In this document: piece by piece, positions 10,141-38,327 of the stretch
Numbering within the stretch: position 1 is the stretch's first letter
Layout: every line of letters starts with the position of its first letter
Assembly: GCF_947502065.1 (NCBI RefSeq)
Contig: NZ_CANMYE010000014.1
Span: forward strand, 140 to 64,139
Direction: 5' to 3'
DNA from: an uncultured Pseudoteredinibacter sp.
Lineage (GTDB): Bacteria; Pseudomonadota; Gammaproteobacteria; Pseudomonadales; Cellvibrionaceae
Length of the DNA stretch: 64,000 nt
Program-made: the position numbers and the translations under genes
Notes under the pieces: model-generated
Databases searched by the model: none
What the model was told of the DNA's origin: nothing
What the model saw: the letters and a program-made list of their open reading frames with translations, nothing else

Positions 10141-10707
10141 ATGCCCATAAAAACCATCCACCTCCCAAGCGACAGCCAACAACAAGTCCTCACCCAAGAA
10201 CTCGCTCGCTTCCAAAATTTCCCAGGCGCCCTAAACCTAGAACAACTAGACGGCTACTTCACCGCCCTACACCTAAGCCCCAGCGATTACGACATTGCCG
10301 ACTGGCTAGAACTAATATGGGGCGGCGGAGACCTCCCCGTAGGTGGCCACTTCTACAGCACCGATGAAATCCAACAGTTCTTCACCACAATGATTCAACA
10401 CTGGCACAACGTTCGCGCACGCTTAGAAGAAGATGAGCTATTTATGCCACTCACCTTTATCACCAGAAATGACGCCAGCTACTGGGCACAAGGCTTTTTA
10501 TTAGGAACAAAACTCTACGAAGAGACATGGCAGGAATACTGCGAAACAGATGACCAAGGCATAGAAACCGCATTACTGGCACAGGCCTACCTACACCACA
10601 AAGACAAAGATCTAAAAACTTACCAAACAGAAGAAGAACAACAAGAACACACCGCCGAACTAAACCAACAACTGATCATCACCCTAAACCACTTCATAAA
10701 AAATTAA
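10141..10707 (+). CDS. YecA/UPF0149-family protein (no C-terminal SEC-C motif)
   Basis: LEQLDGYFTAL..SP, WLELIWGG and WAQGFLLG segments resemble the UPF0149/YecA N-terminal domain. Confidence 0.7.
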   Translation: MPIKTIHLPSDSQQQVLTQELARFQNFPGALNLEQLDGYFTALHLSPSDYDIADWLELIWGGGDLPVGGHFYSTDEIQQFFTTMIQHWHNVRARLEEDELFMPLTFITRNDASYWAQGFLLGTKLYEETWQEYCETDDQGIETALLAQAYLHHKDKDLKTYQTEEEQQEHTAELNQQLIITLNHFIKN

Positions 10708-14482: not shown

Positions 14483-15652
14483 CTAAATAAAATTTCTTTT
14501 CCTTCGATTATAGTAAGAAAATGAATAGTAAACCCAAGCCTGAGTCCAGCGGGTATAATCAATACGATTAGTGTACCACTTCGTTTTTTGATAAAAGAAC
14601 TTACGACTTCTCGGGCAAAACATCTGTTCTATTGATCGACTAATGACTCTATCTGCCAGTGCATAATCTTCTTTACCCCCGCCAACCCCCAACAAAGTAA
14701 TAATTGCCTGAGCAACAGAGTGCATATCCAAGGGATATACGTTGTCGTTATAGTATTTTGCATCAAATGAATCCGTAAAGAAATTTTCCCTATAATACTT
14801 GTAACCTAAGTCAATAGATTCAGTTAATTCTGATTGCTCTAAGCTAGAACGAATTAAAGACAGTGCCTCCAAATTGTACCCTGTGTGAAAACCGTCAATA
14901 AACTGATGATGACTACTACTGCCATAAACCCAAGATCCATTTTCGAGTTGATCTCTAACCGATTGACGGGCAACTAACAATGACAGGTCTCTATACCTAT
15001 CATTATTAGTTTCGCTCCCAACAAAAGCTACCCATGCCGCGCCCCAGAGGCTCGCATTATGAACAAATGCCGTTTCACCTGGTATATACGCGAAATAGTT
15101 TTTGGAGTCGTGGAAAGTGTAAAGTTTCTCAACAATAAAATTAGCAGAGCTAAATGCTTCTTGGATATAATCCGACCTATTCAATAACCTACCAAGTCTA
15201 TATAGTGCTTGAGATACATAGATAGTAGTTATCACATTGGGCTTTCCTTTTGGCACGTAAAATGCTCTAGCCTTCCAGTCAAAATGATAGCCCCAACAGG
15301 AATCTGGCCATATTTCTGGATCACTTTTCACAGACACCAACCAATCAGCCAATTCTACACAAACATCTCTAATATGGTGGTCTTTGACAGGCAAATCATT
15401 TTCAATCATCCCTAAAATATATAAAGCTATACCTTTGGGGTTCCTCATTTTAGGAATCAGCATCGCAGGCCGGAAGTTGATAGGGGATACTTTATGAAGT
15501 TGTGTCCAAAGCAAACCTAAGATCCCGTTTTTAAGCACTGGCATGCATGTAAATATCCTACTATTTAAGCCATCGAATGGATCGTGCCCGCAAAAGTTAG
15601 ACTCCCTAGACTTCTCAAGTATGGACTCAGTGATTTCATCGATAAAATGCAT
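14483..15652 (-). CDS. Conserved polysaccharide-cluster protein of unknown function (predicted alpha/alpha-toroid)
   Basis: 389 aa, in operon. GHDPFDGLNS, WGYHFDW, IDGFHTGY and WTQAW segments are typical of an uncharacterised family found in such clusters. Confidence 0.6.
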   Translation of the reverse strand: MHFIDEITESILEKSRESNFCGHDPFDGLNSRIFTCMPVLKNGILGLLWTQLHKVSPINFRPAMLIPKMRNPKGIALYILGMIENDLPVKDHHIRDVCVELADWLVSVKSDPEIWPDSCWGYHFDWKARAFYVPKGKPNVITTIYVSQALYRLGRLLNRSDYIQEAFSSANFIVEKLYTFHDSKNYFAYIPGETAFVHNASLWGAAWVAFVGSETNNDRYRDLSLLVARQSVRDQLENGSWVYGSSSHHQFIDGFHTGYNLEALSLIRSSLEQSELTESIDLGYKYYRENFFTDSFDAKYYNDNVYPLDMHSVAQAIITLLGVGGGKEDYALADRVISRSIEQMFCPRSRKFFYQKTKWYTNRIDYTRWTQAWVYYSFSYYNRRKRNFI

Positions 15653-15655
15653 CTG

Positions 15656-17818
15656 CTAATCTTCCAAAATTGACGAATCAACCTGCATAATCGCACCGCA
15701 AATAATAGATTCAATAGACATTATTGTCGCTATACTGCAGCTAATTAGCATATGGTAGTCGATGCAGCTCTTCCCACTGCGCAAAGAATCGAGCCAGGCA
15801 TTTACCATATTACGCTGCCCCTTGTCCTGCGTTCTATGCCTGATAGTTTTACCTCCCTCCGTACTAGAGAATAACCTCAACTCCTTAAAATCATCTATAA
15901 TCGCCCCCAACCCACCACCAAAAACTTCGATGTATTCTTTTGGAATACTCTCTGCACCACTTGAACAGTAGATAATATTCGCTATTCCGCCGTTAGCGAA
16001 TCTCAAGTTGATTGTGACATTATCATTCGTTATCGCGGGACAGCTATCATTTTCAGTAGCAAAAGCTGAGACGCTAACAGGCACAGCGCCTATAATTGCA
16101 GAAGCCATATCAATGAAATGACACCCCTCACCTATCACCCTACCGCCACCTACTGACGGATCCTGAATCCAGTGGTCACTAGAAACTTCCCCTGCATTAA
16201 CTCTAATATTCACAACCAATGGAGATTTAATATGTTGAAAATGTCTAATAAGCTCAATTGTAAAAGGGGCAAACCGCCGATTGAAGCCAACCATTAAACT
16301 AGATTTCGCCTTTCCGTAAGAAGAGTGAACTTCGGATAAATCATCAATAGAGAGAGCTAAAGGTTTTTCAACATATACATGTTTGCCCCGATTTAGTGCC
16401 TGTACGACCGAATCCGCATGAGTATTGTGTCTTGTAGTGATTACTACGGCATCTGTGTTATCACCCAACAGGTCCGAAAAGTTAGAGGAGCAAAAATCGA
16501 AACCAAACTGTCTCGAAACACTCTCTGCCGTCCGGCCACTGGCTGTCACAATTCCAACAAGATGGGAGCAAGACGTTGACTGAACAAGCGGGAGAAGGGT
16601 CGCTGTAGAGTAGTTCCCTCCACCATAAAAAGAGAGCCCGATCTTATCTATTGAGGCCATTCTTCGGGGTGTGGTAACTTTTTTAGACGCAACAGCATCA
16701 GGATTGTAATTAAGCATAATAGCCAAGTATGGATCGGTTTTTCTCCCGGCGATTAAGTCATAAGCCTCCTCCGCACGATCCACATCAAAGCGATGAGATA
16801 TTAGCGACTTAACATTGACATTACCGGTCGAAACGAGATCCAAAAACGACTTCATATTTCGCTGCTCGGTAAACCGAACATAACCGTACGGATAATCGTG
16901 CCCACCTTCCTCATAACTCGAATCGTACCGCCCTGGGCCATATGAACGAGATATAACTACATTAATTTCCTTTTTAAAATAATCTTCACGCGGAATATCC
17001 ATTTTGACAGCCCCAACAACAACAACGCGGCCTTTTTCTCTCGTTACACGCCCGCAAAGCTCTATTGGCTGATTGCTATTACTACCAGCACAAACTAAAA
17101 CCCCGTCGACCCCTTGATTCTCGGTTAGATCTCTACATAATTTCTCTAAGTTTGAACCTGGATATATTCCAAATGCTCCGTACTCCTCTGCCAATTCCAC
17201 CAACTTGGAGTCCAAATCAATTGCCAATACCTTACACCCGTTAGATCGAAGTAGCTGCACACTCAATTGACCTATCAGCCCAAGGCCAATAACCAAAAAT
17301 GTTTCCCCTAACTTAGGTTCCGCCAGCCTTAAACCCTGCAATGCAATTGAGCCAACTGTAGCAAAAGACGCTTCTTCATCCGATAAATCGCACGGTATCT
17401 TAACTGCCAAATTCTTGGGAATGGCGACATAATCTGCATGATTCGCATATCCGGCGCCTCCACACGCAACCCTGTCTCCGGGTTGTAGCCCCTCAACTAG
17501 ACCACCAACCGCCACCACCGTACCTGCGCAGCTATAACCGAGAGGGGAAGGGGAATCCAACCTTGAGCTAACAGTTTGAAATGTCTTCCTAACTCCTTCA
17601 TCTCTCAGCTTTCGAAGAACCTGTTTCACGAGATCCGGGCGCGCCTTTGCCTTTTGGATCAGATTTTTATTCCCCATGTCGACTTTACTTTTCTCTGTCC
17701 CCGCACTAATAACAGAACACGAATTTTTGACCAAAATGAATTTATCCGACAAGGCTGGAATCGGAACATCTTCTATAGAAATTTTACCGTCACGCAAGAC
17801 CTGAACTACTTGTTTCAA
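15656..17818 (-). CDS. Bi-domain oxidoreductase (MDR alcohol dehydrogenase-like + Gfo/Idh/MocA)
   Basis: SVISAGTE, LGYSCAG, IGLGLIG, SRSYGPGRYD, then HVYVEKPLA and GEGCHFID. The likely start is TTG at 17818 (GGAGG RBS, TTGA overlap with the upstream stop), not the track's 17866. Confidence 0.88.
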   Translation of the reverse strand: MKQVVQVLRDGKISIEDVPIPALSDKFILVKNSCSVISAGTEKSKVDMGNKNLIQKAKARPDLVKQVLRKLRDEGVRKTFQTVSSRLDSPSPLGYSCAGTVVAVGGLVEGLQPGDRVACGGAGYANHADYVAIPKNLAVKIPCDLSDEEASFATVGSIALQGLRLAEPKLGETFLVIGLGLIGQLSVQLLRSNGCKVLAIDLDSKLVELAEEYGAFGIYPGSNLEKLCRDLTENQGVDGVLVCAGSNSNQPIELCGRVTREKGRVVVVGAVKMDIPREDYFKKEINVVISRSYGPGRYDSSYEEGGHDYPYGYVRFTEQRNMKSFLDLVSTGNVNVKSLISHRFDVDRAEEAYDLIAGRKTDPYLAIMLNYNPDAVASKKVTTPRRMASIDKIGLSFYGGGNYSTATLLPLVQSTSCSHLVGIVTASGRTAESVSRQFGFDFCSSNFSDLLGDNTDAVVITTRHNTHADSVVQALNRGKHVYVEKPLALSIDDLSEVHSSYGKAKSSLMVGFNRRFAPFTIELIRHFQHIKSPLVVNIRVNAGEVSSDHWIQDPSVGGGRVIGEGCHFIDMASAIIGAVPVSVSAFATENDSCPAITNDNVTINLRFANGGIANIIYCSSGAESIPKEYIEVFGGGLGAIIDDFKELRLFSSTEGGKTIRHRTQDKGQRNMVNAWLDSLRSGKSCIDYHMLISCSIATIMSIESIICGAIMQVDSSILED

Positions 17819-19233
17819 AACTTCCTCCCTCTGTGTTGATCTTGTAAACTTGCAAACGAGGCCCAATTAGCAACCCAAATAAACAACGTAGCCCTAGCCA
17901 TTTCCCAGTAATTATCTAGAAAACCTAGAAGGAATACGAAAAAAGTTCCGCAAAACGCAAAAGCACAAATCCCCACACTACTATGCCGCCTAAGGCTTTC
18001 TTTAAGATTTCCTAGCGAGAACAGTAAAAGCCAGAAATACAAAAGAATACCAACGAATCCCCCAAAAAAACCTAGCTCTCCTAACAACGTCAAATAGCTA
18101 GAGTTAGGGTTCGACAATTGATAACTACCAAAAACGATTTCTGACCTAAAATTACTAATGTACTCTAGGTCATAAGGGCTGAATCTTGGCTGAGTCTGAC
18201 CAAGATACTCTCTTATTATTCCAGACACTCCTGATCCATCTTTTATTAAAAACTCGTAACTAAAAGTGTAATACGACCTACTGGTGTAGTTTCCTGGACC
18301 AACCCCCAAAAAGAAATTCGCTATCTCGTCTCCCCACATATCCATCGTGGCAGCGTAAGACTGGAATTTCCCGAACTGCAATATAAAATATGGATCATCC
18401 AATATATCTAGAAAATCACCATACTTTAGTCTATCCGAGTTATCGAAAAGAGAATCAAGCATGTAAACAACTGATACGGCAGCAACCGCCAACAACCCAA
18501 GTACTGAAAATATTCTCAGCGCATTCCTGCTGTACATAAAATATATAAACACAAACACCACCACCAAAAAAAACGGTAGCGCCGCCCTATACTGAAGCAA
18601 AAAGAAGGTTCCAACTACAAACGAAACAAACGCAAATAAAATACCTACGCCAATTCTCCTTTCATAAAACAAACCAACACCAGCCCCAAGACTTGCCACC
18701 AAAAAAATCGAGAAATAATACGCATTAGCTCCAAAAGTACCGGACAGCAAGTCCGGATTCCCGCCCGAGGAGATATAAAGCGGGTAACTCACAAATATTA
18801 CAACAGCGATGTTTATCAGAATCAAATACAAGAACGTCTTTTGAATTAGTAGCGAAGAGCCATAGTCCTTACCTACCAATCTAGTTAGAACAAAGAAAAT
18901 CAACGGACCCTCATAAAATCCTGCAACATATAGGACAAACGCCGGAAAATATACTGTTGCCACATTCCCCAAAAATGAGATTATTAATAGAGCGAATCCA
19001 ACCACCAGGATCAACTCAAATTTCTTTAAGCAAGCGCCTCGAAAAAACAAACAAAACACAGTTGCAGATAGCGTTAGAACAAAAAAAGGATAGTTAATTA
19101 CATCTACTATTTTTGGCAGCAAGCCGAACGTCTCGGTGAAAAGCCGGCTAGAAACCATAAAAACAATTAGAGCCGCCACCAAGTAAATAAAACATTTTCT
19201 TATCCCCAAAGTTTTCGATTGCAAAACCTGCAT
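17815..19233 (-). CDS. wzy: Polytopic membrane protein, probable Wzy polymerase
   Basis: Many hydrophobic segments, a large periplasmic loop with FFLGVGPGNY, located in a wzx-containing cluster. Confidence 0.65.
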   Translation of the reverse strand: MQVLQSKTLGIRKCFIYLVAALIVFMVSSRLFTETFGLLPKIVDVINYPFFVLTLSATVFCLFFRGACLKKFELILVVGFALLIISFLGNVATVYFPAFVLYVAGFYEGPLIFFVLTRLVGKDYGSSLLIQKTFLYLILINIAVVIFVSYPLYISSGGNPDLLSGTFGANAYYFSIFLVASLGAGVGLFYERRIGVGILFAFVSFVVGTFFLLQYRAALPFFLVVVFVFIYFMYSRNALRIFSVLGLLAVAAVSVVYMLDSLFDNSDRLKYGDFLDILDDPYFILQFGKFQSYAATMDMWGDEIANFFLGVGPGNYTSRSYYTFSYEFLIKDGSGVSGIIREYLGQTQPRFSPYDLEYISNFRSEIVFGSYQLSNPNSSYLTLLGELGFFGGFVGILLYFWLLLFSLGNLKESLRRHSSVGICAFAFCGTFFVFLLGFLDNYWEMARATLFIWVANWASFASLQDQHRGRKF

Positions 19234-23338: not shown

Positions 23339-24465
23339 CACATCTCCCTCAACTTGTAGAGCTTTAGGTACTGCTTCGAAGAATTTTCGTATGTGTACTT
23401 CCGCCTAACATACGCTCTGCCTTTCTCTGCTACACTTTCTCTGTAAACCTTATCATTCATTAATCGCCTCAAAATACTCTCAAGGTTTCTTTCATTACCT
23501 GCAACCAGGCCACCTTCAAACCTCATATGCTCCACCACCCCTGGTGAGTCAGCCATTACAATAGATGGCAACCCAAATCCCATCGCCTCGACCACAGAAT
23601 TCCCAAAAGACTCCGACTTGTCAGTTGGAAATATAAAACAATCCATTAGTCTTAAATAGTTAGATACATCCTCTTGCTCACCTACAAAGAAGCAACGATT
23701 TTCTACCGATAACTCAATAGCTAACCTTTCTAACCTTGCCCTATCAGGTCCATCACCCACTATACATGCAACAACGCCTTTAACAGATGCAACAAGTCTT
23801 AGGAGATATTCGACTCTTTTAAGCGCACGTAAATTAGCTGTAATTCCGATGCAGAAATCAACAGTGCTTATTCCAATAGCTTGCCTCAATTCACAAGCTT
23901 TTTCTTTAGACACCAACAAATCAAAGTCCACCCCATTGTAAGTTACCTCTACATTCTTACCCTTCAACTTAAACAACCGTTTCGCTACTTCAGCCGCATG
24001 CTCTGTATTAGCTGACACAGAGAAATGCCCCCCTCTTAGCAACCACCCTATTGCTCCATAAGTAGACTTCCGCTTTAACCCGTAGTTGTGGTCTCCAGCC
24101 CTATGGGTGTATACAAACTTTACGCCTGATGCAAACAACGAAAGATACATTTCAAATGGTTGGGGCGAATGAAAATGTACATAGTCCATTCTTTTAAAAA
24201 TATTGATTATATCTATCGAATAACGAGGGTCTAATTTTCCTCTACCTCTAGCAACTGAAACATCCACATTCAGCTCGCTAACTCGCTGAGCGTAGTAACC
24301 GGGATTACTTAAAACTAATAAACTAGGAATTACGCCCTTTTGCCCAACCTGACTTCTTATTAATTGATATATTGCGCGTTCGGCCCCACCGACACACATA
24401 CTATTGGACACATGTAATATGCGAATACCATCAATGTTTTTACTGATCAACTCCTCGCTCCCCAA
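23338..24465 (-). CDS. Glycosyltransferase family 4
   Basis: GGAERA, VTYNGVD and ESFGNSVVEAMGFGLP motifs. Confidence 0.9.
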   Translation of the reverse strand: MGSEELISKNIDGIRILHVSNSMCVGGAERAIYQLIRSQVGQKGVIPSLLVLSNPGYYAQRVSELNVDVSVARGRGKLDPRYSIDIINIFKRMDYVHFHSPQPFEMYLSLFASGVKFVYTHRAGDHNYGLKRKSTYGAIGWLLRGGHFSVSANTEHAAEVAKRLFKLKGKNVEVTYNGVDFDLLVSKEKACELRQAIGISTVDFCIGITANLRALKRVEYLLRLVASVKGVVACIVGDGPDRARLERLAIELSVENRCFFVGEQEDVSNYLRLMDCFIFPTDKSESFGNSVVEAMGFGLPSIVMADSPGVVEHMRFEGGLVAGNERNLESILRRLMNDKVYRESVAEKGRAYVRRKYTYENSSKQYLKLYKLREM

Positions 24466-25850
24466 GAATGGACAATAGCTGGAAGATAAAACGTTGAGGT
24501 AGCTATCAAAGAGAACAAAACTGAGAAGGCAAGCCCGACAATCCCCACCGCACCAACTTCCACAGCGATAAGCACAGTTAGAGCAGTAAGAAACATCGAA
24601 TACAGGAGCGCCATGAACACACTAGTGAACTGCTTCTTACAGTCCTCCGTGTATTTATACAAATAATAACCGCTTAAAATATAGTTAACTAATTTAGAAA
24701 CTGTATACATAACACAAGCCCCCTTTAGCCCAAATATACTCCCACCCAACACAAGCATAGCTGTCACTATAAACTTTAAAATGGATAAATTTATAAACTT
24801 GGTCACTTTCCCTACGGACGGATAATATATATTTAGTAAACCGTCTAAAAGTTGAAGCGCGATTCCAAGTGCAGCTATAGGAAATATCCCAACCAAACCA
24901 AGCCACTCTTCTCCTAAAGCAGACCTCACCAAGTATTCCGAGTATACAAATGCAACCGAACATAAGGGAAATAACAACAAAATAGAGAAGCTGGAAATCG
25001 AAGCGAGTTTTTCTATAGGAAAATTATCCTTCTCTTTCGAAAAGTACGGAAACAAAACTGTAACCATAACCTGCGTGACTTTCCTTAGGGGCGAAGATAC
25101 AACCTTCATTAGGAACGAATAAAGCCCAAAGCCTGATGCCGACAGGGCCTTGGAAAGTATTAGGAGATCAATGTTCTTCTCAAAGTAGACTATCACTTCT
25201 CCAATTTTGTACTTTATGGAATATTCTACCAATCCTTTTACTTCGCTAAAATTGAAGTATAGCTTTCCGGGCCAACGATCTGAAAACATAAATATTACTA
25301 AGTAACCAGCGTGAAGCAGCACAAGTTGTATAACAAGCGCATATACACCATAACTTGCGAAAGCCGCATAAACTGCTACCATCCCCGATATAGTAACTGA
25401 CACCACATCGAACACCGCCAGCCTTGCAAATTTCATTTTTTTTTCATTTATCCTCCTCTGAATTATATAAAGAGGCCTCATAACAAATATAAATGAAAAC
25501 AAGGGGATTAATTCAGACAGTTGATTCTGGCCAAAAATACTCACTGCTATTGGACGCAATAAGTTCAACACAAAAACGGAACATACTCCCAGAGCCAACC
25601 CAAGCCAAAAAAGGGTCGATATCTGGTTCTCGGATATGTGTTTTTTATTTATTATTGCTTGCCCAAAACCCACACTAGATAGCATTGTTACAAAATTTGA
25701 AAACAGAAGAATCATTGCAATCAGCGCAAAGTCTTCAGGCTTAAGGTATCTAGCCAACACCCCCACAACCAATATACTAAATAGCTGCTGGTAAACCGCA
25801 GACAGAGCAGTTACTCCACCGCCAAGGAATAAGCGCTTTATCATAAACAA
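24447..25850 (-). CDS. wzx: Wzx flippase (PST/MOP family)
   Basis: [16 protein letters not shown]-terminal motif and about 12 hydrophobic segments. Confidence 0.85.
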
Positions 25851-28745: not shown

Positions 28746-30656
28746 TTAGTAGATATCCTTCGCAAAAAGCGTGAATGGCGTCTTAGCCAATATCTTCATA
28801 TCCAGCCACAGCGACCAGTTATTGATATAGGCCATATCAAACTCCACACGCTTTTCCATTTTATCCAGCGTTTCTGTTTCACCGCGGCAGCCGCTTACTT
28901 GGGCTAGGCCTGTGATGCCAGGCTTAATTCTGTGGCGCGCTAAATAGCGGTTTATTTTTTTGCTATAAAAGTGATTGTGCGCTACTGCGTGTGGGCGCGG
29001 GCCCACTAGGCTCATGCGGCCCTGCAATACATTTATTAGTTGGGGCAGCTCATCGATGGAAGTGCGGCGAATAAATTTACCTATGGGGGTTACTCTATCG
29101 TCGTTTTTGGTCGCTTGTTTTACTTCGCCGCCTGCCTCATCGTGTTGGCGCATGCTGCGGAACTTCCACACTTCAATAATGCTGCCATCCCAGCCGTGGC
29201 GCTGCTGCTTAAAAATTACTGGGCCTTTCGAGCTTAGTTTTACCAGTGCCGCTATGGTTAGCATGATGGGCGATAGCGCAATTAGGGCCAGTAATGCGAT
29301 GCTTCTATCCATTAAGTCTTTTAGCACGGTAGATAAGCGCGAGCTGGTTAGCGGGCTTTCGTTTAGTGATATCAGTGGTACGCCGCCCACTTCACGTACT
29401 GAGTGGTTTACTAGGTTTAGGGCAGAGATATCTGGTGCCCAGATGATGTCTACATTGGCATCCATTAGCTCGATGTTTAGTTTGCTTACTTGTTGGGATA
29501 GCAACATAGGCAGGGCTATGTAGATGCGTTTTATGCCGCAGGCTTCTACGATTTTTATTAGCGAGCTGATGTGGTTTATTTCTGTGTAGGCGGCCAGCTC
29601 TTCTAGTTTTTGTTTTTGGGCTTGGTTTTTGTTGTGGTTTACTACTAGGGATAGGCGGTTTGTGAATGAGGCTGGGGCCGCATTTTGATTAGTGGCTTCG
29701 ATTTTGGGGTCAGATCCCTTGGGATCTGACCCCGTGTGTGGCGTTGCTTCGCTCGCCTTGAACTCTGTGAAGGCGGGTTTGTTTAGGTAGGTGCTGCTTA
29801 GCTTGCCGATGATGGGGACGTTGGCTAGTTTGCGGTTTAGCTTTACGTTGAATAGGCGCTTGCGCTTTTGGGCGAAGACATCGAGTGTTTTTTCTTCGCC
29901 TAATTCTTGTGCGGCTGCGTATTCGCTTTCGGCTACGCTGGTTTGTAGCCCTGGCTGTAAATCCGGCTCGCCCTCTACTTTAATTGTAGCCACTACATTA
30001 TCGCGCACCCATGGGTTGCGGTTTAGGCTGTTTACTAATTGCTGGGCGATTGCTCCGCTACCGATAACTAATGTGGGTATAGAGTGGGAATGGTGAGCGC
30101 GATACATACGCGTTAAATAATGGAAGGCAAAGTAAGCAGCTATTTGGCCTGCCCATGCTGTTGCAAACCACACTAATAAAACTTCGCGCGAATAGGTGAC
30201 GCTGGTTTTGGTAATAAAACCCAGCACTGCCAACAAAGCGACTGTAGTAGCCCATGCAATACTAATGCGCAGCACACTATTAAAGTGCCCTGTCGATCGG
30301 CGGTGTATGCCTTGGCTGCTATATACAAAGGCAATGGCAAAGGCACTGAGCACCGCAAGCACACGATAGTCAGAGCTGATAGCACCCATCTTTATATAGG
30401 CAAGCGTGCAAAGGCTGGCAACTACCCAAGCGATATCGCAGGCCAGTTGTAAAAATGCCACTAGGTTTTGATTGTTTTTTAGCAGGCGCCGGCCTTGAGG
30501 CACATCTACCCCTGCCTGGGGCAATATTGCCTGCTGAATAGCTTCAGAATTTACGGCGGCGCCAAATGCCGGCTCGTTTAACCCTGCCTGCTGTATGTTG
30601 TTGTTTGCTATATGCTCGCCTGCCATATTGGCGGCGTGATTTCCCTGTGACTCCAT
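28746..30656 (-). CDS. wcaJ: Undecaprenyl-phosphate glucose phosphotransferase with a large internal insertion
   Basis: N-terminal TMs, LVIGSG, KFRSM, RRTSIDELPQL, MSLVGPRP and KPGITGLAQV. At 636 aa it carries an extra low-complexity segment containing a REP. Confidence 0.92.
   Translation of the reverse strand: MESQGNHAANMAGEHIANNNIQQAGLNEPAFGAAVNSEAIQQAILPQAGVDVPQGRRLLKNNQNLVAFLQLACDIAWVVASLCTLAYIKMGAISSDYRVLAVLSAFAIAFVYSSQGIHRRSTGHFNSVLRISIAWATTVALLAVLGFITKTSVTYSREVLLVWFATAWAGQIAAYFAFHYLTRMYRAHHSHSIPTLVIGSGAIAQQLVNSLNRNPWVRDNVVATIKVEGEPDLQPGLQTSVAESEYAAAQELGEEKTLDVFAQKRKRLFNVKLNRKLANVPIIGKLSSTYLNKPAFTEFKASEATPHTGSDPKGSDPKIEATNQNAAPASFTNRLSLVVNHNKNQAQKQKLEELAAYTEINHISSLIKIVEACGIKRIYIALPMLLSQQVSKLNIELMDANVDIIWAPDISALNLVNHSVREVGGVPLISLNESPLTSSRLSTVLKDLMDRSIALLALIALSPIMLTIAALVKLSSKGPVIFKQQRHGWDGSIIEVWKFRSMRQHDEAGGEVKQATKNDDRVTPIGKFIRRTSIDELPQLINVLQGRMSLVGPRPHAVAHNHFYSKKINRYLARHRIKPGITGLAQVSGCRGETETLDKMEKRVEFDMAYINNWSLWLDMKILAKTPFTLFAKDIY
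29706..29733 (+). repeat. REP palindrome, T-type, inside the wcaJ coding sequence
   Basis: GGCTTCGATTTT-GGGGTCAGATCCC-TT-GGGATCTGACCCC; translates in frame as (T)GSDPKGSDP(K). Confidence 0.95.
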
Positions 30657-31848
30657 GATCCGCTCCGAGCGTTGTCACATTCCTATTAATCCGTTACATC
30701 CTGGATTTATGTCAGCCGTCTGTGCAGCCTCTTACATCTATTTACTTCTACGCTTATAACCTACTGATCTTGCAATTGGCCGTTTTTATAAATGCTGGCA
30801 TATATAAAAACAGACAAAAAAATGCATCAAACATGAGCGCTAATCACCTTTAAGGCACTCTTGTTTATTTCATTGGTTTGGGGGCTTTATGTTTATCGAA
30901 GGCTTACTCTTATTCTTTCGCTAGAGCTAATAGCTTCGATTGATTGGAATAGTTGGTTGGCTTAGCGCGGCTTAATACCACTGTTTACCGCAGCGTTATG
31001 TCAGTAAATCACCGTCCCGGTGAACTTCATACCGACCGCCGCTTGTAAAGCCAACCCAGCAGTTTCTGGCCTCCCTTTAGCTCACTCTTTTTGGCGCGCT
31101 AATCTACCCTTTTAACTGCGAGAACACCCTATTTCCCTTGGCCTTTTCCAAACTCCGTCTTAGAAATCTCCCTGGTTCTTTATGTTGAACCTAATAAATT
31201 TGATCCCAAATACTTAGCTGGCAGAATCTTATCTTGCCACTATGTAATTTTTTTTACGGATTTAACTTTATTACTTTTTAACTATAAATCCTTAAGAATT
31301 GGCGAGCAGTCTAAGTAATTAAGTTGATGCGAGCAACATTATTAATGTGAGCTGAATCACGATTTTGTGGTTTTTGGTGTTTTAAGCGACAAAATGTCGA
31401 TAACTGGCTGGACAACTCGGTTTTTATAAGATTAAGGAATTTGCAGGCATTTTTATAATAACCAAAGGGATTTAATAAGGTTTGTATTTTTAGGAGTTAT
31501 ATAAACTTTAGAGCCAGAGTATTTGTCGTTTTTTCAGGGTTAGCTCGAAATAAGACTTTAAAACTAAACATTCCTATCAGTTAGCTTATACGACAGGCAC
31601 TTAAGTTTTGTCGCGTTAGTCGTTTTTTTAGGAAATTTTATTTACCTAAGTTCATTAGCTTTGTTAGAATTTTAAGTGGTCTTAGATTGCAGCGCCATTT
31701 GCGATTGTTAATGCTTCCTTAGAAGATGTACGGCTGACAGTACTAGAGGTATCCAAAGCACTTAAGCAACCTAGGCAACACGGCGCAAAACAGCATTGAA
31801 GCTGCAATGGAAGAAAAAGCGATTGAACGCATTCAAGGAGAAACCTCA

Positions 31849-32592
31849 ATGCCTAGTTTATTCAGAAAGGGCGTATCGCCCCTGCTGTTATCATTGCTAT
31901 TGCCTTTAATGGCCAATGCCGATGTAGCATCCGATTTATCCAATAATGTTCCTATTGCCGATGTACTGGCAAATGCTATTGCTGACGGCATGACTGCCGA
32001 AGAAGCCGTAGCCGTTATTGCGGCCAATGATGCCTCACAAGTAGCTGCCGCTGTAGCAGCGGCTGTAGCGGCTAACCCGGCGGCGGCTGTAAGCATTACC
32101 CAAGCGGCTATCGCTGCAGTGCCAGCCCAGGCGGCGGTGATTGCCTCAGCTGCAGTTAGTGCGGCGCCTAATAATGCACAAGCTATTACCAATGCAGCAG
32201 TAACCGCAGCACCTACCGCAGCTGAAGCGATTGTTGGCGCAGCGGTAACAGCGGCCCCACAAGTGGCAAATAATATTGTACAGGGTGCAACTCAAGCGCA
32301 ACCTGGCAACAACACTAACTTTGTTCAGGCCGCGATTGCTGCCAACCCAACGGTTGCAGGCCAAGTAACCGGTGCGACGGCGGCTGGTGGCCAGCAAGGT
32401 AATGCTGGTGACTCAGGTAATACTGGGAATACCGGTGATACCGGCAACACTGGTAATACGGGCAATACCGGAAATACCGGTAACGCAGGAACTGGTAATG
32501 CTGGAGCAGGCGGTGCTGGTGGCGCCGGTGGTTCTGGTGGTGCCGGCGGCGGTGGTGGCGGCGGCGGCGGCGGTGGTGCCAGCCCTGCCTAA
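31849..32592 (+). CDS. Secreted Ala-rich 15-aa-repeat / Gly-X-Y repeat protein
   Basis: AAGGAG RBS before ATG 31849, Sec signal ending ANA, seven 15-aa repeats, eleven Gly-X-Y triplets, poly-Gly tail, own terminator. Confidence 0.8.
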   Translation: MPSLFRKGVSPLLLSLLLPLMANADVASDLSNNVPIADVLANAIADGMTAEEAVAVIAANDASQVAAAVAAAVAANPAAAVSITQAAIAAVPAQAAVIASAAVSAAPNNAQAITNAAVTAAPTAAEAIVGAAVTAAPQVANNIVQGATQAQPGNNTNFVQAAIAANPTVAGQVTGATAAGGQQGNAGDSGNTGNTGDTGNTGNTGNTGNTGNAGTGNAGAGGAGGAGGSGGAGGGGGGGGGGGASPA

Positions 32593-32630
32593 GCTTTGTG
32601 TTTACGGCTTAACGTAAACATACATTACAT

Positions 32631-32663
32631 AATAAAGCGCCCTTTGCGGCGCTTTATTTTTGT
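32631..32663 (+). terminator. Rho-independent terminator
   Basis: AATAAAGCGCC-CTTTGC-GGCGCTTTATT followed by a T run. Confidence 0.8.
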
Positions 32664-32706
32664 CTGCAACACCCTGCCTTTATAAAAATAACTTTATGGA
32701 TGATGT

Positions 32707-34080
32707 ATGAGCACCCTGCTATCGCAATCAGGTAATGCCATTGTTAATAGATATTATTATTGGTTCTTGGGCTTACTCGCCTGGATGCCCCTACCCTTAG
32801 CCAGCAAACGTATTTGGGCGAGCATGTTGCTGTGCATTTGGGTATATGTTCTTAGCGCCTTTGTTATTCGTTTTTATATTGTTCATGCCTTGCAAGTACC
32901 TAAGCCACTTAGGGTAGCCTGGCCCGCCTTTTTACTGCTGGGGCTAAGTTTTAGCTGGCAGTTGTATTTAAGTATACAAGCCAATATTGATACCTTTTCG
33001 GCCTATTTAAGCAGCATGCTTGCGCTGGCTTATATATTAATATTCTTGCTGTGTTTTTTGCTAATCAATAGTACAGAGCGAATTAAAGCTTGTGCCTGGG
33101 TGTTGGTGCTTAGTGCGCTGTTTCAAGCCTTGTATGGCAGCTTTATGAATTTAAGCGGTATTGAGTATTTATTTTTTGTTCCGAAGGATACTTACTTTGG
33201 GGTTAATACCGGTACTTTTGTGAATCGCAATAGCCAAGCGGGTTATTTAGTGATGTGCAGCTCGATAGGTATTGGTTTGATGATATCTACCTTGGCCAGT
33301 ACGCCGGCTAAAAGTATTCGAGAGCATGGCCGGCGTTGGATGCAGGCGATTTTAAGTCGCAAAATTATTTTGCGTTTAAGCCTGGTGATGATTGTTGCTG
33401 GCCTTGTTATGACCCATTCGCGCATGGGTAATACCTCCTTTTTTGCGAGCTTGATGATTATTAGCCCGCTGGCTTTGATTCTTGGGCGTTTTAATAAGCG
33501 GGTAAAGAATAAAGGCTCATGGAAAGGTTTGTTTGTTTTACTGGCCAGCTTGGTAATTATTGATATTGCTGTGGTGGGTACTTTTTTTGGGGTAGATAAA
33601 GTTGCTCAACGTTTAGAAGCTACTGCGAGTGAAAAGGAAACTCGTGATGATGTCGTTAAAAATGCAGCCCCTTTACTTGATAAGGTTTATGTGACGGGTT
33701 TGGGGGGCGGTAGTTTTTATACGGCCTTTCCGGAATATCGTACCTATGAGACAGGGCGCTCTTTTTATAATTTAGCGCATAATGATTATCTGCAGTTTAT
33801 GTTGGAATTTGGTTTGATTGGCTTTTTGCCTTTGCTGTTGCTTTGTATGGTGGTTTTTTATTTGGGCTTGGCGACGCAGATGCGGCGTGGGGATCGATTG
33901 CTGCGAGGAATTGGTTTTGGAGTGGCCATGGCGGTTTTAGCGATGGGGATTCATGCTACGGTGGATTTTAACTTGCAGATGCCGGCGAATGCTGGGACGT
34001 TTATGGTGGTATTGGCGCTTGGGTTGATTGTTTATTATTTTCCGAATCAAGGGAAGAGGAAGCGTCGGGGATTGAGTTAG
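32707..34080 (+). CDS. O-antigen ligase-family (Wzy_C) membrane protein; possible O-oligosaccharyltransferase
   Basis: GTFVNRN, THSRMG, GLGGGSFY, LAHNDYLQF and IHATVDFNLQMPAN motifs; multiple TMs. Confidence 0.88.
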   Translation: MSTLLSQSGNAIVNRYYYWFLGLLAWMPLPLASKRIWASMLLCIWVYVLSAFVIRFYIVHALQVPKPLRVAWPAFLLLGLSFSWQLYLSIQANIDTFSAYLSSMLALAYILIFLLCFLLINSTERIKACAWVLVLSALFQALYGSFMNLSGIEYLFFVPKDTYFGVNTGTFVNRNSQAGYLVMCSSIGIGLMISTLASTPAKSIREHGRRWMQAILSRKIILRLSLVMIVAGLVMTHSRMGNTSFFASLMIISPLALILGRFNKRVKNKGSWKGLFVLLASLVIIDIAVVGTFFGVDKVAQRLEATASEKETRDDVVKNAAPLLDKVYVTGLGGGSFYTAFPEYRTYETGRSFYNLAHNDYLQFMLEFGLIGFLPLLLLCMVVFYLGLATQMRRGDRLLRGIGFGVAMAVLAMGIHATVDFNLQMPANAGTFMVVLALGLIVYYFPNQGKRKRRGLS

Positions 34081-34133
34081 GGTTTTTGGTGTTTGATGGG
34101 GTGGCTGGGGATTTTGGATCTCGGCTTCGATTT

Positions 34134-34242
34134 GGGGTCAGAACCTTTTGGGTTCTGACCCCGGGTTGGGTTTGGGCGCTATGGTTAGGGCATTTGGGAT
34201 CTCGGCTTCGAGGTGGGGTCAGAACCCTTGGGTTCTGACCCC
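34134..34242 (+). repeat. Two A-type REP palindromes (34134-34162, 34215-34242), 81 bp apart
   Basis: Both are preceded by TGGATC/GGGATC-TCGGCTTCGA; arms are GGGGTCAGAACC/GGTTCTGACCCC. Confidence 0.92.
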
Positions 34243-34250
34243 TTTTTGGT

Positions 34251-35891
34251 TTAGTTCTTTTTGCTGCGGCCGAAGGCGGTTACTGCGCAGCGGTGTGAAA
34301 GTAGATCTACGGTGCGGATGTTATAGTCGCCGCCGCTGGCTTCTAGGGTGGTTACCATTTGGTGGCTATTGGACTCTTGTTCTACTTTGTAAATTTGCTC
34401 TTGATTTAGTGGGTAGCGTACTGGATCGCCTTCGGCCATGCCTACTAGCAGATCAGCTTCGCAGCGCACTTTTGCACGGGTGATATCTGGCTCGCCCTGT
34501 AATGCGAAGCGCATGGTTAGTTCGCAAGCTTTTACTTCTTTATCGTCGGTGCGTTGGCAGGCTAGTAGTTCTTTTTCTAGGGTTAGCAGAACGGGTTGGC
34601 CTGTTGGGTTTGATTGTCTTTTTCTTGTTGTAGCGCTGCTTGGTTTTGCTTGTTCGGGCTCAGCAAGGGAAGCATTGCCAGCCAGGCGATCTTTAAAGCT
34701 TGGTGTTGTGGACGTTGGCGGCTCGGTTTTTGCGCTTTGTTTTTGCATTGGGTGGTTGCTGACGAGGTTATCTGGGTTTTCTTCTGGCCATGGGGTTTTG
34801 TTAGCGGGCTGGTTGGGCCTCGCTGCTGTTTTTGTGCTTGCTGTTATTTGGGTGCCGGTATTAGGGTCAGAACCGATTGGGTTCTGACCCTGGGTTTGGG
34901 CTTCTGCTTTTGTGTTTGCTGCGGTTTGGGTGCCGGTATTAGGGTCAGAACCGATTGGGTTCTGACCCTGGGTTTGGGCTGCTGCTTTTGTGCTTGCTGC
35001 GGTTTGGGTGCCGGCATTAGGGTCAGAACCGATTGGGTTCTGACCCTGGGTTTGGGCTGCTGCTTTTGTGGTTGCTGCGGTTTGGATGCCGGTTTTAGGG
35101 TTAGAACCGTTTAGGTTATGACCCTGGGTGTTTGTTGGCTTGGTGGCGGATTTGGGGTCGGAACCCTTGGGGTTCTGACCCCGGATTGGTTGAGGTTTTA
35201 CCTTTGTTTTTGCTAGGGCGTTTATTGTGGCCCAGTCTTTTTTTAGGAAGTGGGCAGCTACCCAACCGTGTAGGCGTTTGCCATCGTTGTTTGGATCTAT
35301 GGTGGTTATTCTGGCCCAGCCGTTATCTTTGTTATACACCATTACTGGGTGCTCAAATGGTATGGCGCTTAGGCGGATGTGTTTGGTGCTGGGGCCGCTG
35401 CGCACTTTTAGCGATTTAGTTTTCACTTGATGTGGTACGCCTTCACCTATGGGGTGAGGCTGTACTAACGCGGTGAATTCTGCAGCGTTGGTTTTTTTAT
35501 TTCTTTTTGGGCGGTTCGATACTGGGTCTACTTTAATATAGCGTGATGACATCCAGCCAGTGCGTTGTTGTTTGCCCTTGGGTAGGTTTTTATTGATAAA
35601 ACTGACTTCTGTCCACTCTCCTTGTACGCGTAAGCGAGTGACTACATGGCCTTTATTTAGCTGGCTAATGCCGGGGTAATCAGAGCCTGGGCCTTGGCGA
35701 ACTTTGACGAAGTTGGCGGTGATTACGCCGTATTCGGCCGCTTGGGATTTTGGGGTTGTTATTGGGGTGGTTAGTAGGGTGACTAGGGTTAGTGCCAGTA
35801 GGTAGAGTGGGGTCAGACCCCGTGGGGGTCTGACCCCGGTGGTGGTGTTGGTGAAGCTGTTTTTAAACTGGCCTATTTTTGCTGCTGGCAT
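34251..35891 (-). CDS. Secreted protein with two bacterial SH3 domains, a REP-derived repeat linker and an unknown C-terminal domain
   Basis: Signal-like N-terminus; VKVRQGPG..W and LKVRSGPS..NGWA SH3b motifs; (T/A)QGQNPIGSDP repeats; Cys-containing C-terminal domain. Confidence 0.8.
   Translation of the reverse strand: MPAAKIGQFKNSFTNTTTGVRPPRGLTPLYLLALTLVTLLTTPITTPKSQAAEYGVITANFVKVRQGPGSDYPGISQLNKGHVVTRLRVQGEWTEVSFINKNLPKGKQQRTGWMSSRYIKVDPVSNRPKRNKKTNAAEFTALVQPHPIGEGVPHQVKTKSLKVRSGPSTKHIRLSAIPFEHPVMVYNKDNGWARITTIDPNNDGKRLHGWVAAHFLKKDWATINALAKTKVKPQPIRGQNPKGSDPKSATKPTNTQGHNLNGSNPKTGIQTAATTKAAAQTQGQNPIGSDPNAGTQTAASTKAAAQTQGQNPIGSDPNTGTQTAANTKAEAQTQGQNPIGSDPNTGTQITASTKTAARPNQPANKTPWPEENPDNLVSNHPMQKQSAKTEPPTSTTPSFKDRLAGNASLAEPEQAKPSSATTRKRQSNPTGQPVLLTLEKELLACQRTDDKEVKACELTMRFALQGEPDITRAKVRCEADLLVGMAEGDPVRYPLNQEQIYKVEQESNSHQMVTTLEASGGDYNIRTVDLLSHRCAVTAFGRSKKN
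34863..35182 (+). repeat. Five REP-derived palindromes inside the SH3 gene (34863-34891, 34941-34969, 35019-35047, degenerate 35097-35125, 35154-35182)
   Basis: AGGGTCAGAACC-GATTG-GGTTCTGACCCT at exact 78-bp spacing, then 57 bp to the last copy. Confidence 0.93.
35809..35837. repeat. REP palindrome within the SH3 protein N-terminal signal region
   Basis: GGGGTCAGACCCC-GTG-GGGGTCTGACCCC; reads GVRPPRGLTP on the minus strand. Confidence 0.88.
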
Positions 35892-35931
35892 TTTGTTCCC
35901 TTGCCTTGTTTTGGTTTTTTGGCTTCGAGGT

Positions 35932-35960
35932 GGGGTCAGACCCTATGAGGGTCTGACCCC
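35932..35960 (+). repeat. REP palindrome, short type
   Basis: GGCTTCGAGGT-GGGGTCAGACCC-TATGA-GGGTCTGACCCC; exact reverse complement of the copy at 9963-9991. Confidence 0.92.
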
Positions 35961-35975
35961 GACTTTGCTTGCCTT

Positions 35976-37394
35976 TTATTCTTTTGTTCTGCCGTAGTCG
36001 TCTTGTAAGCGTACGATATCATCTTCGCCTAGGTATGAGCCCGATTGTACTTCAATCATTTCTAGGGGAATCATACCTGGGTTTTCAAGGCAGTGTATTA
36101 CACCGATTGGGATGTAGGTGGATTCGTTTTCGCTGAGTAGTAGTGTGTTGTCGCCGTTGGTTACCTTGGCTGTACCACTAACCACGATCCAATGCTCGGC
36201 GCGGTGGTGATGTTTTTGCAAGCTAAGTTTTGCACCTGGGTTTACGGTAATACGTTTTACTTGGTAGCGCTCGCCTGCGTCGATGGAATCGTATTTGCCC
36301 CATGGGCGATACACTTCGCGGTGCTGCACATGTTCGCTGCGGCCTTCTTTTTTTAGTGTGCTAACAATATCTTTTACTTCTTGCACTCGGCTGCGATCAG
36401 CGACTAACACAGCATCTTTGGTATCCACGATGACTAAGTCATCTACACCGATGGTGGCGATTAATTTTTCTTGAGCGATAACAAAGTTATTGTGACTGTC
36501 TTTATCTATCACGTCGCCTTGGTGAACATTGCCATCAGCATCTTTTTCTTTGATATCCCATAGGGCCGACCAGCTGCCGACATCGCTCCAACCAGCATCC
36601 AATGGTAATACTACCGCTTGATCGGTTTTTTCCATTACTGCGTAGTCGATGGAATCGTCTGGGCAGGCTTCGAAGGCTTCCTTGTTGATTCTTAAGAAGT
36701 CTAAATCGGCAGCAAGGTTTTGAGAGGCTTGCTCGCAGGCTTGGAATATATCCGGGCGATATTCTTTTAGCTCTTCTAGATAACGATCAGCGCGGAATAG
36801 GAACATACCGCTATTCCATAAGTATTCACCACTGGCTAGGTAGCTTTCTGCGGTGGCTAAATCTGGTTTTTCTACGAAGGCATCTACCTTAAAGGCATCG
36901 GCTTGGGCTTCGCCTTGGCGAATATAGCCATAACCTGTAGCGGGGCTATCGGGTACGATGCCGAAGGTGACTAGCTTGCCATCGCGGGCAATGGGTAAAG
37001 CCTGTTGTACGACGCGCTGGAACTCTTGAGTGTTTTCTATGACATGATCGGCCGCCAATACCAATAAAAGCTGGCTGCCCTCACCTTTCTGTTGAGCTCT
37101 AAAGGCTGCCAAGGCAATGGCTGGGGCGGTGTTGCGGCCAATGGGCTCTAATAAGATTTCGGCTTTGGTATCTAACTGGCGTAAGTGCTCGGCTACCAAA
37201 AAGCGGTGTTCTTCGTTGGTAATAATGGTGGTTTGGTGATCGGCCAAGCCCTCAAGGCGCTGCACGGTTTCTTGCAGCATGCTGCTGTCGCTATTGAGGT
37301 TTAGAAACTGCTTCGGATAGGCCGTGCGGGACATAGGCCACATGCGAGTACCCGAGCCACCAGCCATGATGACGATATTCAGATCTGCAGACAT
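35976..37394 (-). CDS. manC: Mannose-1-phosphate guanylyltransferase / mannose-6-phosphate isomerase
   Basis: [46 protein letters not shown] and [13 protein letters not shown] motifs. Confidence 0.95.
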
Positions 37395-37745: not shown

Positions 37746-38327
37746 TTAGGTGGTTCGGATTGATTGGATTTGTTTGGGGTTTAACGCTTCTTGGAAGAGG
37801 TTTTGGTAGTTGGTTTGTTTTTGTTCTTTGGTATTTCCTAAAGAATCATATATGGAATGAGCTGTTGTAAGATTGTCACTTTTGCCAAATGCATTGCAGT
37901 TGTAGCTGGACCATTTGTATTGGCTAGGGTGGTTAACTAAGCCAGCTCGGACGGGGTTTAGCTCTACGTAACGATAAGCACACAACAGGTAACTATCGTG
38001 AGTAATTTGCTTTGAGCGGTAGCGGCCTTGCCAAAGTGTGCCACTGCGCTGGTATTTTTTGTTGTAGTAGTTGCTGTAGGCAATGCTTAGGGTTTGCATC
38101 ATTTTTGAGGGGGCGTTTGATTGCTCTGCTGTACAGAGTAGATGGATGTGATTACTCATGAACACCCAAACGTGGATGCTTACTTTGTAATGGCTGGACT
38201 TTGTTCTTAGTAGGCTTAGGTATTTTACGTGGTCTTGCTCGTCGTGGAAAACTTGTTGCCGATTGCAGCCGCGCTGGACGATATGGAGGGGAATGCCTGG
38301 GGTGGTTTGGCGGGGCTGTCTTGGCAT
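37746..38327 (-). mobile_element. REP-associated tyrosine transposase (RAYT, HUH/Y1 TnpA family)
   Basis: MPRQPR..PGIPLHIVQRG start, HUH motif SNHIHLL, LWQGRY, catalytic Tyr in RYVELNPVRAG, YKWSSY; flanked on both sides by palindromes. Confidence 0.92.

Follow-up and report, generated by a model that had tools for sequence, protein, structure and literature searches.

Why does the gene of a small, repeat-bearing secreted protein stand immediately before that of a Wzy_C-domain membrane ligase, beside a polysaccharide cluster that already encodes a probable Wzy? The question is raised by a stretch of 64,000 nucleotides, here called the window, from contig NZ_CANMYE010000014.1 of an uncultured Pseudoteredinibacter sp. 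Both genes lie on the forward strand, in the same orientation and 115 nt apart: the small gene (31849-32592; ATG at 31849, stop codon at 32590-32592) encodes a secreted protein of 247 residues, and the ligase gene (32707-34080) a polytopic membrane protein of 457 residues belonging to the WaaL superfamily (Wzy_C), the proposed O-oligosaccharyltransferase (O-OTase). An earlier note on this DNA had suggested that the repeat unit of the exopolysaccharide (EPS) is transferred by the ligase onto the small protein, giving a matrix or surface-fibre glycoprotein. Of this EPS-coupled glycoprotein idea, the coupled pair and the acceptor-like Ser-Pro end of the small protein have held, but the parts concerning a collagen-like or polyglycine-II helix and the linker of a neighbouring SH3 protein have not. 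As far as sequence comparison can tell, it is well supported that the small protein and the Wzy_C gene form a conserved, functionally coupled module, and this module is real, widespread and unannotated. We see about an even chance that the pair consists of a dedicated O-OTase and its non-pilin acceptor, which would work in the way that TfpO and TfpM work with a pilin.

Conservation and transcription of the gene pair

The comparison drew on 80 genomic loci of ligase relatives (34-74% identity) and on look-up loci, 92 loci being scored in total. A signal-peptide protein encoded on the same strand directly upstream of the ligase relative was found in 51 of the 92; 36 of these partners were recognised by a hidden Markov model (HMM) of the N-terminal head, 11 by a signal peptide combined with an SPx end, and four as Ala/Gly-rich proteins with a Ser-containing end. 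In the closest ligase clade (HMM score of at least 648) the partner is present in all 26 informative loci. A metagenome scan with the head motif yielded seven loci, and in each of the six with downstream DNA a gene of the ligase clade follows directly. The carriers are Cellvibrionaceae, Neptuniibacter, Neptunomonas, Amphritea, Pontibacterium, Cycloclasticus, Thalassolituus, Halieaceae, Sedimenticola and metagenome-assembled genomes (MAGs) of Moraxellaceae.

The conserved unit extends beyond the pair. The gene of a WcaJ-type initiating phosphoglycosyl transferase, located in the window at 28746-30656 on the reverse strand (CoA_binding_3 and Bac_transf domains; TIGR03023 WcaJ_sugtrans at 3e-137, above the cut-off), is transcribed divergently from the pair, with a gap of about 1.2 kb between it and the small gene; L001, L002, L084, L085 and L006 show this divergent layout too. 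In Neptuniibacter and Amphritea the order of a variable Wzx/Wzy cluster, wcaJ on the reverse strand, the divergent partner and ligase genes and, further on, aceF and aceE is kept, and the content of the cluster differs. The divergent WcaJ-type transferase is the third member of the conserved unit, while the remaining glycan cluster varies. One Cellvibrionaceae MAG (JAOXRV01) harbours two ligase paralogues, L005 and L006, 74% and 59% identical to the ligase of the window, respectively. The whole WcaJ/partner/ligase unit is seen at L006, where the partner ends in ...GGGGGRASDN, and the contig of L005 begins inside the ligase gene; these are either two modules in one genome or the result of a mixed bin.

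Some variation within and around the pair was also recorded. In Amphritea atlantica (L085, 8702-9940) about 1.2 kb without a called gene separates the partner from the ligase, and at L002 a lipoprotein gene (7318-7908) is inserted between the two. In the close relatives L001 (9472-10566) and L003 (3583-4677) the ligase gene is followed by two extra genes, encoding a cyclic nucleoside monophosphate (cNMP)-binding protein of 196 residues and a PEMT/ICMT-type methyltransferase of 148 residues. Both are absent from 34081-34250 of the window, where two repetitive extragenic palindrome (REP) sequences are present instead.

The two genes of the pair are separated by an intrinsic terminator (32631-32666) composed of a hairpin with an 11-bp stem (32631-32658) and a T-run. 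By a lenient test, a hairpin and T-run directly after the stop codon of the partner were found in 36 of 39 loci, many of these terminators having the classic form AAAGCGC-loop-GCGCTTTTTT. The small gene is preceded by the ribosome-binding site (RBS) AAGGAG (31834-31839) and by a sigma-70-like promoter candidate (31641-31670), weakly indicated by a consensus scan (9/12, with TG). An Rfam scan of 30400-36200 gave nothing above the gathering scores; a sub-threshold match to 'sraL' overlaps the terminator, probably by chance.

The available RNA data are assembled contigs of related strains from four biofilm oligo-dT metatranscriptomes, contig depth serving as a crude measure of expression. Contigs 93-100% identical to 31659-32576 were found, and they start at 31659-31693, near the promoter candidate. 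Their word depth is 25-130 over the small gene, 0-5 over the ligase gene and 3-15 over aceEF in the same runs, the drop from 25-130 to 0-5 taking place across the terminator; a huge depth in the bin 32410-32590 was dismissed as a low-complexity artefact. Transcription of the small gene appears to exceed that of the ligase gene, and the terminator together with the contrast in depth points to an abundant small protein and a scarce enzyme, the latter made by read-through or from a weak start of its own. The 1.2-kb divergent region upstream of the small gene (30657-31848) is gene-free and is covered by contigs at 30909-31056 and 31115-31216 at a depth of 8-64. These contigs may represent a long wcaJ leader; the region contains no exact ops/JUMPStart motif and no Rfam match.

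Architecture of the small protein and its C-terminus

The small protein begins with a Sec signal peptide (residues 1-24, 31849-31920), MPSLFRKGVSPLLLSLLLPLMANA|DVASD, which is of the Sec/signal peptidase I (SPase-I) type, is cleaved at A-N-A|D and contains neither a lipobox nor a pilin motif. The A-x-A|D[IV]ASD junction is kept in at least 28 homologues. The mature protein starts with a conserved head (31921-32046) of the form D[IV]ASD[LIV]..G.S......NA...G.S..., followed by seven 15-residue repeats (32047-32361), A-A-V-x-A-A-P-x-x-A-x-x-I-x-x, predicted to contribute one helix each to an alpha-solenoid. The solenoid is closed by an ATAAG motif (32374-32388), seen by eye in many family members, usually as [DN]P......[AS][TA]AAG, after which come a disordered tether (32389-32577) and the C-terminal A-S-P-A with the stop codon (32578-32592), in which Ser245 is the proposed acceptor residue.

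Many features named in the earlier note, the Sec signal, the gene's own RBS and terminator, the poly-Gly tail and the ASPA end, were confirmed in the sequence. So were the eleven Gly-X-Y triplets at 32389-32487 (GQQ GNA GDS GNT GNT GDT GNT GNT GNT GNT GNA) that open the tether; the Gly-rich stretch after them contains 11 consecutive Gly, and the DNA of the tether holds tandem repeats of 9, 18 and 36 nt. The repeats had been described as seven exact copies of 15 residues. The spacing of their Pro residues (77, 92, 107, 122, 137, 152 and 167) is indeed exactly 15, and self-identity reaches 0.42 at this period versus 0.12-0.27 at other periods, but the copies are not identical in sequence. Nor does the description of the protein as Thr/Ser-rich apply, the mature form being Ala/Gly-rich overall (30% Ala, 18% Gly, 8.5% Thr and 4% Ser).

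Structure prediction, which the earlier note had proposed as a check, separated the protein into two parts. The AlphaFold2 model, built with a 15-sequence alignment, has a predicted local distance difference test score (pLDDT) of 97-98 for residues 25-175. Three helices form the head (pLDDT 91-98), and each repeat makes one 14-residue helix broken by Pro (62-75, 77-90 and so on to 152-165; pLDDT 95-98). Residues 187-247, comprising the triplets, the poly-Gly run and ASPA, are without regular structure (pLDDT 42-50). The small protein is confidently modelled as an alpha-solenoid with a disordered tail. The 15-residue repeats form the helices of the solenoid rather than a set of Thr/Ser acceptor repeats. 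The collagen-like or polyglycine-II helix envisaged for the G-N-T tract finds no place in the model, the tract being predicted as disordered and only eleven triplets long; moreover, G-N-T triplets are confined to the window and its 96% relative L003, and the other lineages have unrelated low-complexity tethers. Structure prediction is not fully conclusive against a polyglycine-II helix, yet such a helix is not supported here.

The protein belongs to a family without a model in the databases. Pfam-A and NCBIfam contain none that matches the window protein or nine to ten of its relatives, even at E <= 1, noise apart, and a fold search of the PDB gave no meaningful match (best E 0.37). A word-indexed homology search with the full protein returned almost nothing, and one with the head alignment gave 621 candidates, none of them significant, likely because of low complexity. 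Of the metagenome scans with repeat-only alignments, two provided no usable conserved stretch, and another gave 600 pattern matches, its 30-residue query being unconfirmed by tblastn. One protein, P0119, could not be placed on a contig. An exhaustive search with the mature solenoid retrieved 66 representative related proteins. Among the 67 proteins scanned (P0121-P0187, that is, these 66 and P0121), the 15-residue repeat A-[VI]-x-A-x-P-x-x-A-x-x-I is present in 42, and 34 terminate in SP plus one to three residues. P0124-P0187 make up a secreted 15-residue-repeat family with several unrelated N-terminal heads and with ends such as PDLVSPSS and PASPTQ.

The extreme C-terminus distinguishes the partners from other proteins of the same loci, as was evident when 43 partner proteins were compared with 2230 background open reading frames (ORFs). 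Ser occupies position -3 or -4 from the C-terminus in 42 of the 43, and 34 end in S-P-x or S-P-x-x, as against 1.03% of the background ORFs. The earlier note had suggested testing whether the gene pair and the SPx motif at the C-terminus occur together in other genomes. The outcome is strongly positive, considering also the 51 of 92 and six of six loci described above. The ends found include ASPA, ASPS, GSPT, SSPT, ASPSA, VSPSS, ISPSQ and CPSPH; the last residue is Ser or Thr in 21 of the 43 partners and Ala in the window protein. The signal peptide, the head, the ATAAG-like motif at the solenoid end, the Gly-rich run and the C-terminus are conserved, while the middle and the tether diverge almost completely, with repeats of 14 or 15 residues, GQGQGQ runs, PPPFG[SN]N or Pro/Thr-rich stretches, and the composition of the tether is different in every lineage. 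In three Halieaceae loci (L048, L052 and L064) the upstream ORF encodes 109-110 residues with a signal peptide, is not matched by the head HMM, lacks a Gly tail and ends in ...KVCPSPH. Placed on a flexible, disordered tether, the Ser could reach a membrane-embedded active site, and by analogy the acceptor of a TfpO/TfpM-like O-OTase would be expected to have an end of this kind, with Ser-Pro borne by a disordered Gly-rich tether.

Sorting by PEP-CTERM/exosortase, GlyGly-CTERM/rhombosortase or as a lipoprotein was considered for the small protein and rejected, since a C-terminal transmembrane helix and PEP or lipobox motifs are absent and NCBIfam gave no match. That the mature D-[IV]-A-S-D N-terminus might be attached to peptidoglycan, as in alpha-proteobacterial outer-membrane proteins, is pure speculation by analogy.

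The ligase as a candidate O-oligosaccharyltransferase

The identification of the gene directly after the small gene as a Wzy_C gene was borne out by Pfam (PF04932; 54.6 bits versus a cut-off of 31.7, E 1.4e-14, residues 225-376). This is the sole Pfam match of the ligase at E <= 0.01; PglL_A (PF15864) and Wzy_C_2 (PF11846) were not found, and the NCBIfam WaaL/ligase models gave no match at the same threshold. The AlphaFold2 model of the ligase has a predicted template modelling score (pTM) of 0.83. Its sole solved relative is WaaL (7TPG; Foldseek E 6.2e-5, TM 0.56/0.62, the latter target-normalised, profile E 4.7e-5, identity about 14%), FtsW matching more weakly. Residues R239, R313 and H358-N359-D360 do not vary among 24 homologues; in an alignment with WaaL 7TPG the His motif falls on HAHND, and the two arginines would be equivalent to R215 and R288 of the E. 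coli enzyme. The domain above its gathering score, the WaaL-like fold and the conserved His and Arg residues place the ligase in the WaaL/Wzy_C superfamily. Its best public match comes from a Cellvibrionaceae MAG (96% identity), and its relatives are all publicly annotated as 'O-antigen ligase family protein'. Of the residues G-x-G and H-x3-[DE], listed as PglL-specific by Schulz et al., G-x-G was discarded as non-discriminating, since it is found in WaaL 7TPG as well.

Three protein-specific O-OTases are known, TfpO, TfpM and PglS, all of which act on pilins (PMC12645811, a 2025 review), and they are encoded next to the genes of their substrates in the same orientation (PMC12645811, PMC3643930). 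TfpO consists of 440-470 and TfpM of 420-440 residues (PMC9829042, PMC12645811); the ligase of the window falls within this range of 420-470, has Wzy_C as its only domain, and its gene is directly downstream of that of the proposed acceptor in the same orientation. A close parallel is TfpO (PilO) with PilA of Pseudomonas aeruginosa 1244 and Acinetobacter, likewise a Wzy_C enzyme without PglL_A and Wzy_C_2, encoded directly downstream of its single substrate; its acceptor is a Ser at the flexible C-terminus of the substrate, and the glycan is taken from the cell's undecaprenyl-diphosphate (Und-PP) surface polysaccharide pathway (PMC9829042, PMC12645811). Unlike the TfpO substrate, the protein described here has a Sec (SPase-I) signal peptide and an alpha-solenoid in place of a type IV pilin leader and hydrophobic N-terminal helix, and its Ser, at -3 or -4, precedes a Pro instead of closing the chain. 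The glycan also differs, its start being of the WcaJ type and probably glucose, whereas TfpO is reported to need a C2-acetamido sugar at the reducing end.

TfpM of Moraxellaceae is a small Wzy_C O-OTase encoded directly downstream of its cognate acceptor, which it modifies at the C-terminus, and it accepts long chains as well as glycans with reducing-end glucose (PMC9829042); its acceptor is pilin-like and ends in Thr, in contrast to the non-pilin partner with its S-P-x end. PglL of Neisseria, Burkholderia and Acinetobacter transfers glycans en bloc to Ser in disordered Ala/Pro-rich regions, and its glycotag WPAAASAP resembles the ...G-A-S-P-A end of the small protein (PMC12645811). However, PglL enzymes have 550-600 residues with PglL_A and Wzy_C_2, act on many substrates and usually show no genetic linkage to them. 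With 457 residues and neither of these domains at E <= 0.01, the ligase lies outside the PglL/PglS range of 520-620 residues with both. WaaL 7TPG shares the superfamily, the fold and the HAHND histidine motif with the ligase, and differs in acting on lipid A-core and in its low identity to it.

By analogy with these systems, the small protein would be exported by Sec and its signal peptide removed, after which it would fold into the alpha-solenoid (the head and seven 15-residue helices) bearing a 60-residue disordered Gly/Asn/Thr tether with the end ...G-A-S-P-A. The WaaL-family enzyme would take the Und-PP-linked glycan from the adjacent Wzx/Wzy cluster, a glycan that probably carries glucose at its reducing end because it is started by the divergent WcaJ-type transferase. 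The glycan would then be transferred en bloc to the hydroxyl of the near-C-terminal Ser245; Ser and Thr residues in the tether may be modified too. The product would be a glycan-bearing periplasmic or matrix protein. We infer the glycosylation of Ser, the role of this enzyme as its agent and the destination of the product.

The role of acceptor is the most economical mechanism for the partner, as one conserved Ser ends a long disordered tether, the gene is directly upstream of that of a 457-residue Wzy_C enzyme without PglL_A and Wzy_C_2, the neighbouring glycan genes vary, and the substrate gene is apparently transcribed above the enzyme gene. A substrate that is abundant and an enzyme that is scarce would be expected to show such a contrast in depth, with a terminator like that seen in 36 of 39 loci. 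Across genera the ligase retains 50-75% identity and the adjoining glycan clusters differ in content, a combination that fits a glycan-tolerant ligase. The conserved divergent WcaJ, for its part, would suit an enzyme with specificity for the reducing-end sugar, which is determined by the initiating transferase. The pair is described as working like TfpO/TfpM and not as a member of that class, since the proposed acceptor is no pilin and its Ser does not occupy the last position.

Several points weigh against a dedicated acceptor. To our knowledge, there is no precedent for one that is not a pilin. With the conserved Ser at -3/-4, the partners differ from the TfpO/TfpM acceptors, in which the residue is the very last; the RNA depth comes from oligo-dT contigs of related strains and is a poor measure of expression; and 36 of the 92 ligase-relative loci, mostly those of more distant relatives, have no partner. 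In addition, the only solved relative of the ligase is WaaL, and WaaL and O-OTases are inseparable by sequence or fold (PMC3643930).

The last of these points leads to the best of the competing explanations, which is nevertheless unlikely: the Wzy_C protein would be the organism's WaaL or K-LPS ligase, acting on lipid A-core, and the upstream protein a periplasmic accessory docking by its tail. Besides the solved homologue and the public annotation of the relatives, it draws on the position of the gene beside a variable Wzx/Wzy cluster, on the flank that is conserved, where an O or K antigen ligase might be encoded, and on more distant relatives that occur without a partner, for instance after rplQ or directly after a sugar transferase gene. 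On the other hand, a conserved terminator between the genes of a stoichiometric accessory and its enzyme would be unexpected, as would transcription of the accessory far above the enzyme, and what hardly varies in the partner is one Ser borne by a disordered tether, the rest being variable. No NCBIfam WaaL model matches the ligase at E <= 0.01. Two ligase copies, such as those in MAG JAOXRV01, at least one of them with the full unit, are unusual for a housekeeping WaaL, and we know of no WaaL that needs a protein partner or has one co-conserved with it. Even if the enzyme should turn out to act on lipid A-core, its strictly co-conserved partner would add a new component to the pathway concerned.

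Slightly less probable still is an independent structural role of the small protein in the matrix or periplasm, its production being co-regulated with that of the exopolysaccharide; the S-P-x end would be a signal for secretion, proteolysis or another modification, and the adjacency to the ligase would reflect shared regulation only. Secreted proteins with 15-residue repeats and SPx ends form a broad family, which is consistent with this, as are the promoter-like site and terminator of the small gene's own. Yet the partner is specifically directly upstream of the ligase on the same strand while other genes of the cluster vary, and no other candidate for a modifying enzyme is conserved beside it. 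That the Wzy_C gene encodes a further Wzy polymerase, acting on the repeat unit of the cluster, is highly improbable: Wzy polymerases also have the Wzy_C fold and domain, but their genes are serotype-specific and co-vary with the repeat-unit genes, one per cluster, whereas the ligase gene, so similar across genera beside clusters of different content, shows no such co-variation, and Wzy candidates are already present at 17815-19233 in the window and in L085.

Should the pair be a dedicated O-OTase and its acceptor, it may further represent a fourth class of protein-specific bacterial O-OTase and the first with a non-pilin dedicated acceptor, the acceptors being a widespread and unannotated family of Sec-secreted alpha-solenoids with a disordered tether and a C-terminal Ser-Pro tag, loaded with whole WcaJ-initiated exopolysaccharide units. 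This broader proposal is put forward tentatively, with a little less than even confidence. With a WaaL-family enzyme coupled to a non-pilin acceptor, bacterial protein glycosylation would be broader in range, and a large protein family without a model, spread over several families of marine Gammaproteobacteria, would acquire a function. The outcome would be protein-anchored, 'proteoglycan-like' polysaccharide parts of marine biofilm matrices, and the pair would suggest how some exopolysaccharides become tethered to protein in biofilms. The four-residue C-terminal tag with a Gly linker, combined with tolerance of variable glycans that have glucose at the reducing end, would be a new tool for bioconjugation and could serve in the engineering of glycoconjugates.

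The glycan cluster and the surroundings of the pair

The region 67-30656 of the window encodes a Wzx/Wzy-dependent polysaccharide system. Its genes specify a CpsB-type phosphatase, a Wzc-like tyrosine kinase, a Wza-like exporter and a BBP2_2 porin, and further genes encode nucleotide-sugar enzymes, three GT4 glycosyltransferases, an AsnB-like amidotransferase, an acetyltransferase, WecB and WecC. The Wzx flippase is encoded at 24447-25850. The probable Wzy that the earlier note had seen in the cluster is there too (17815-19233), its Wzy_C match being weaker than that of the ligase and sub-threshold (E 2.9e-4). The cluster also contains a gene (15656-17866) for a protein of 736 residues in which a zinc-type alcohol dehydrogenase is fused to a GFO/IDH/MocA oxidoreductase, and another (14483-15652) whose 389-residue product has no Pfam match. 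A lipid A-core ligase is as a rule encoded by a single gene, within or close to the LPS core cluster. Among the annotated ORFs of 1-49024, with the exception of 10141-10707, no lipopolysaccharide (LPS) core genes were found, the ORFs from 49248 on being outside the scan.

On the 3' side the pair is followed by REP palindromes, a convergent gene for an SH3 protein, ManC, a REP-associated Y1 transposase and aceEF. REP-like palindromes GGGTCAGAACCnnnnGGGTTCTGACCC are located in frame within coding sequence at 34135-35836 (six sites), 29694-29741 and 37746-38327. A 78-bp tandem array of 3.9 copies (34822-35129), like the remaining sites in the SH3 gene, consists of REP palindromes (GGGTCAGAACC...GGTTCTGACCC), which are translated in frame into repeated GQNPIGSDP linkers of the SH3 protein; in WcaJ (29694-29741) the translation is GSDPKGSDPK. 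The linker of the SH3 protein, which had been suggested as a further glycan acceptor, finds no support as such, its repeats being in-frame REP palindromes and its gene lying outside the conserved module. The Y1_Tnp gene, encoding a protein similar to REP-associated tyrosine transposases, is found near the REPs, and the SH3 protein itself has 546 residues in the window versus 409 in its orthologue in L001.

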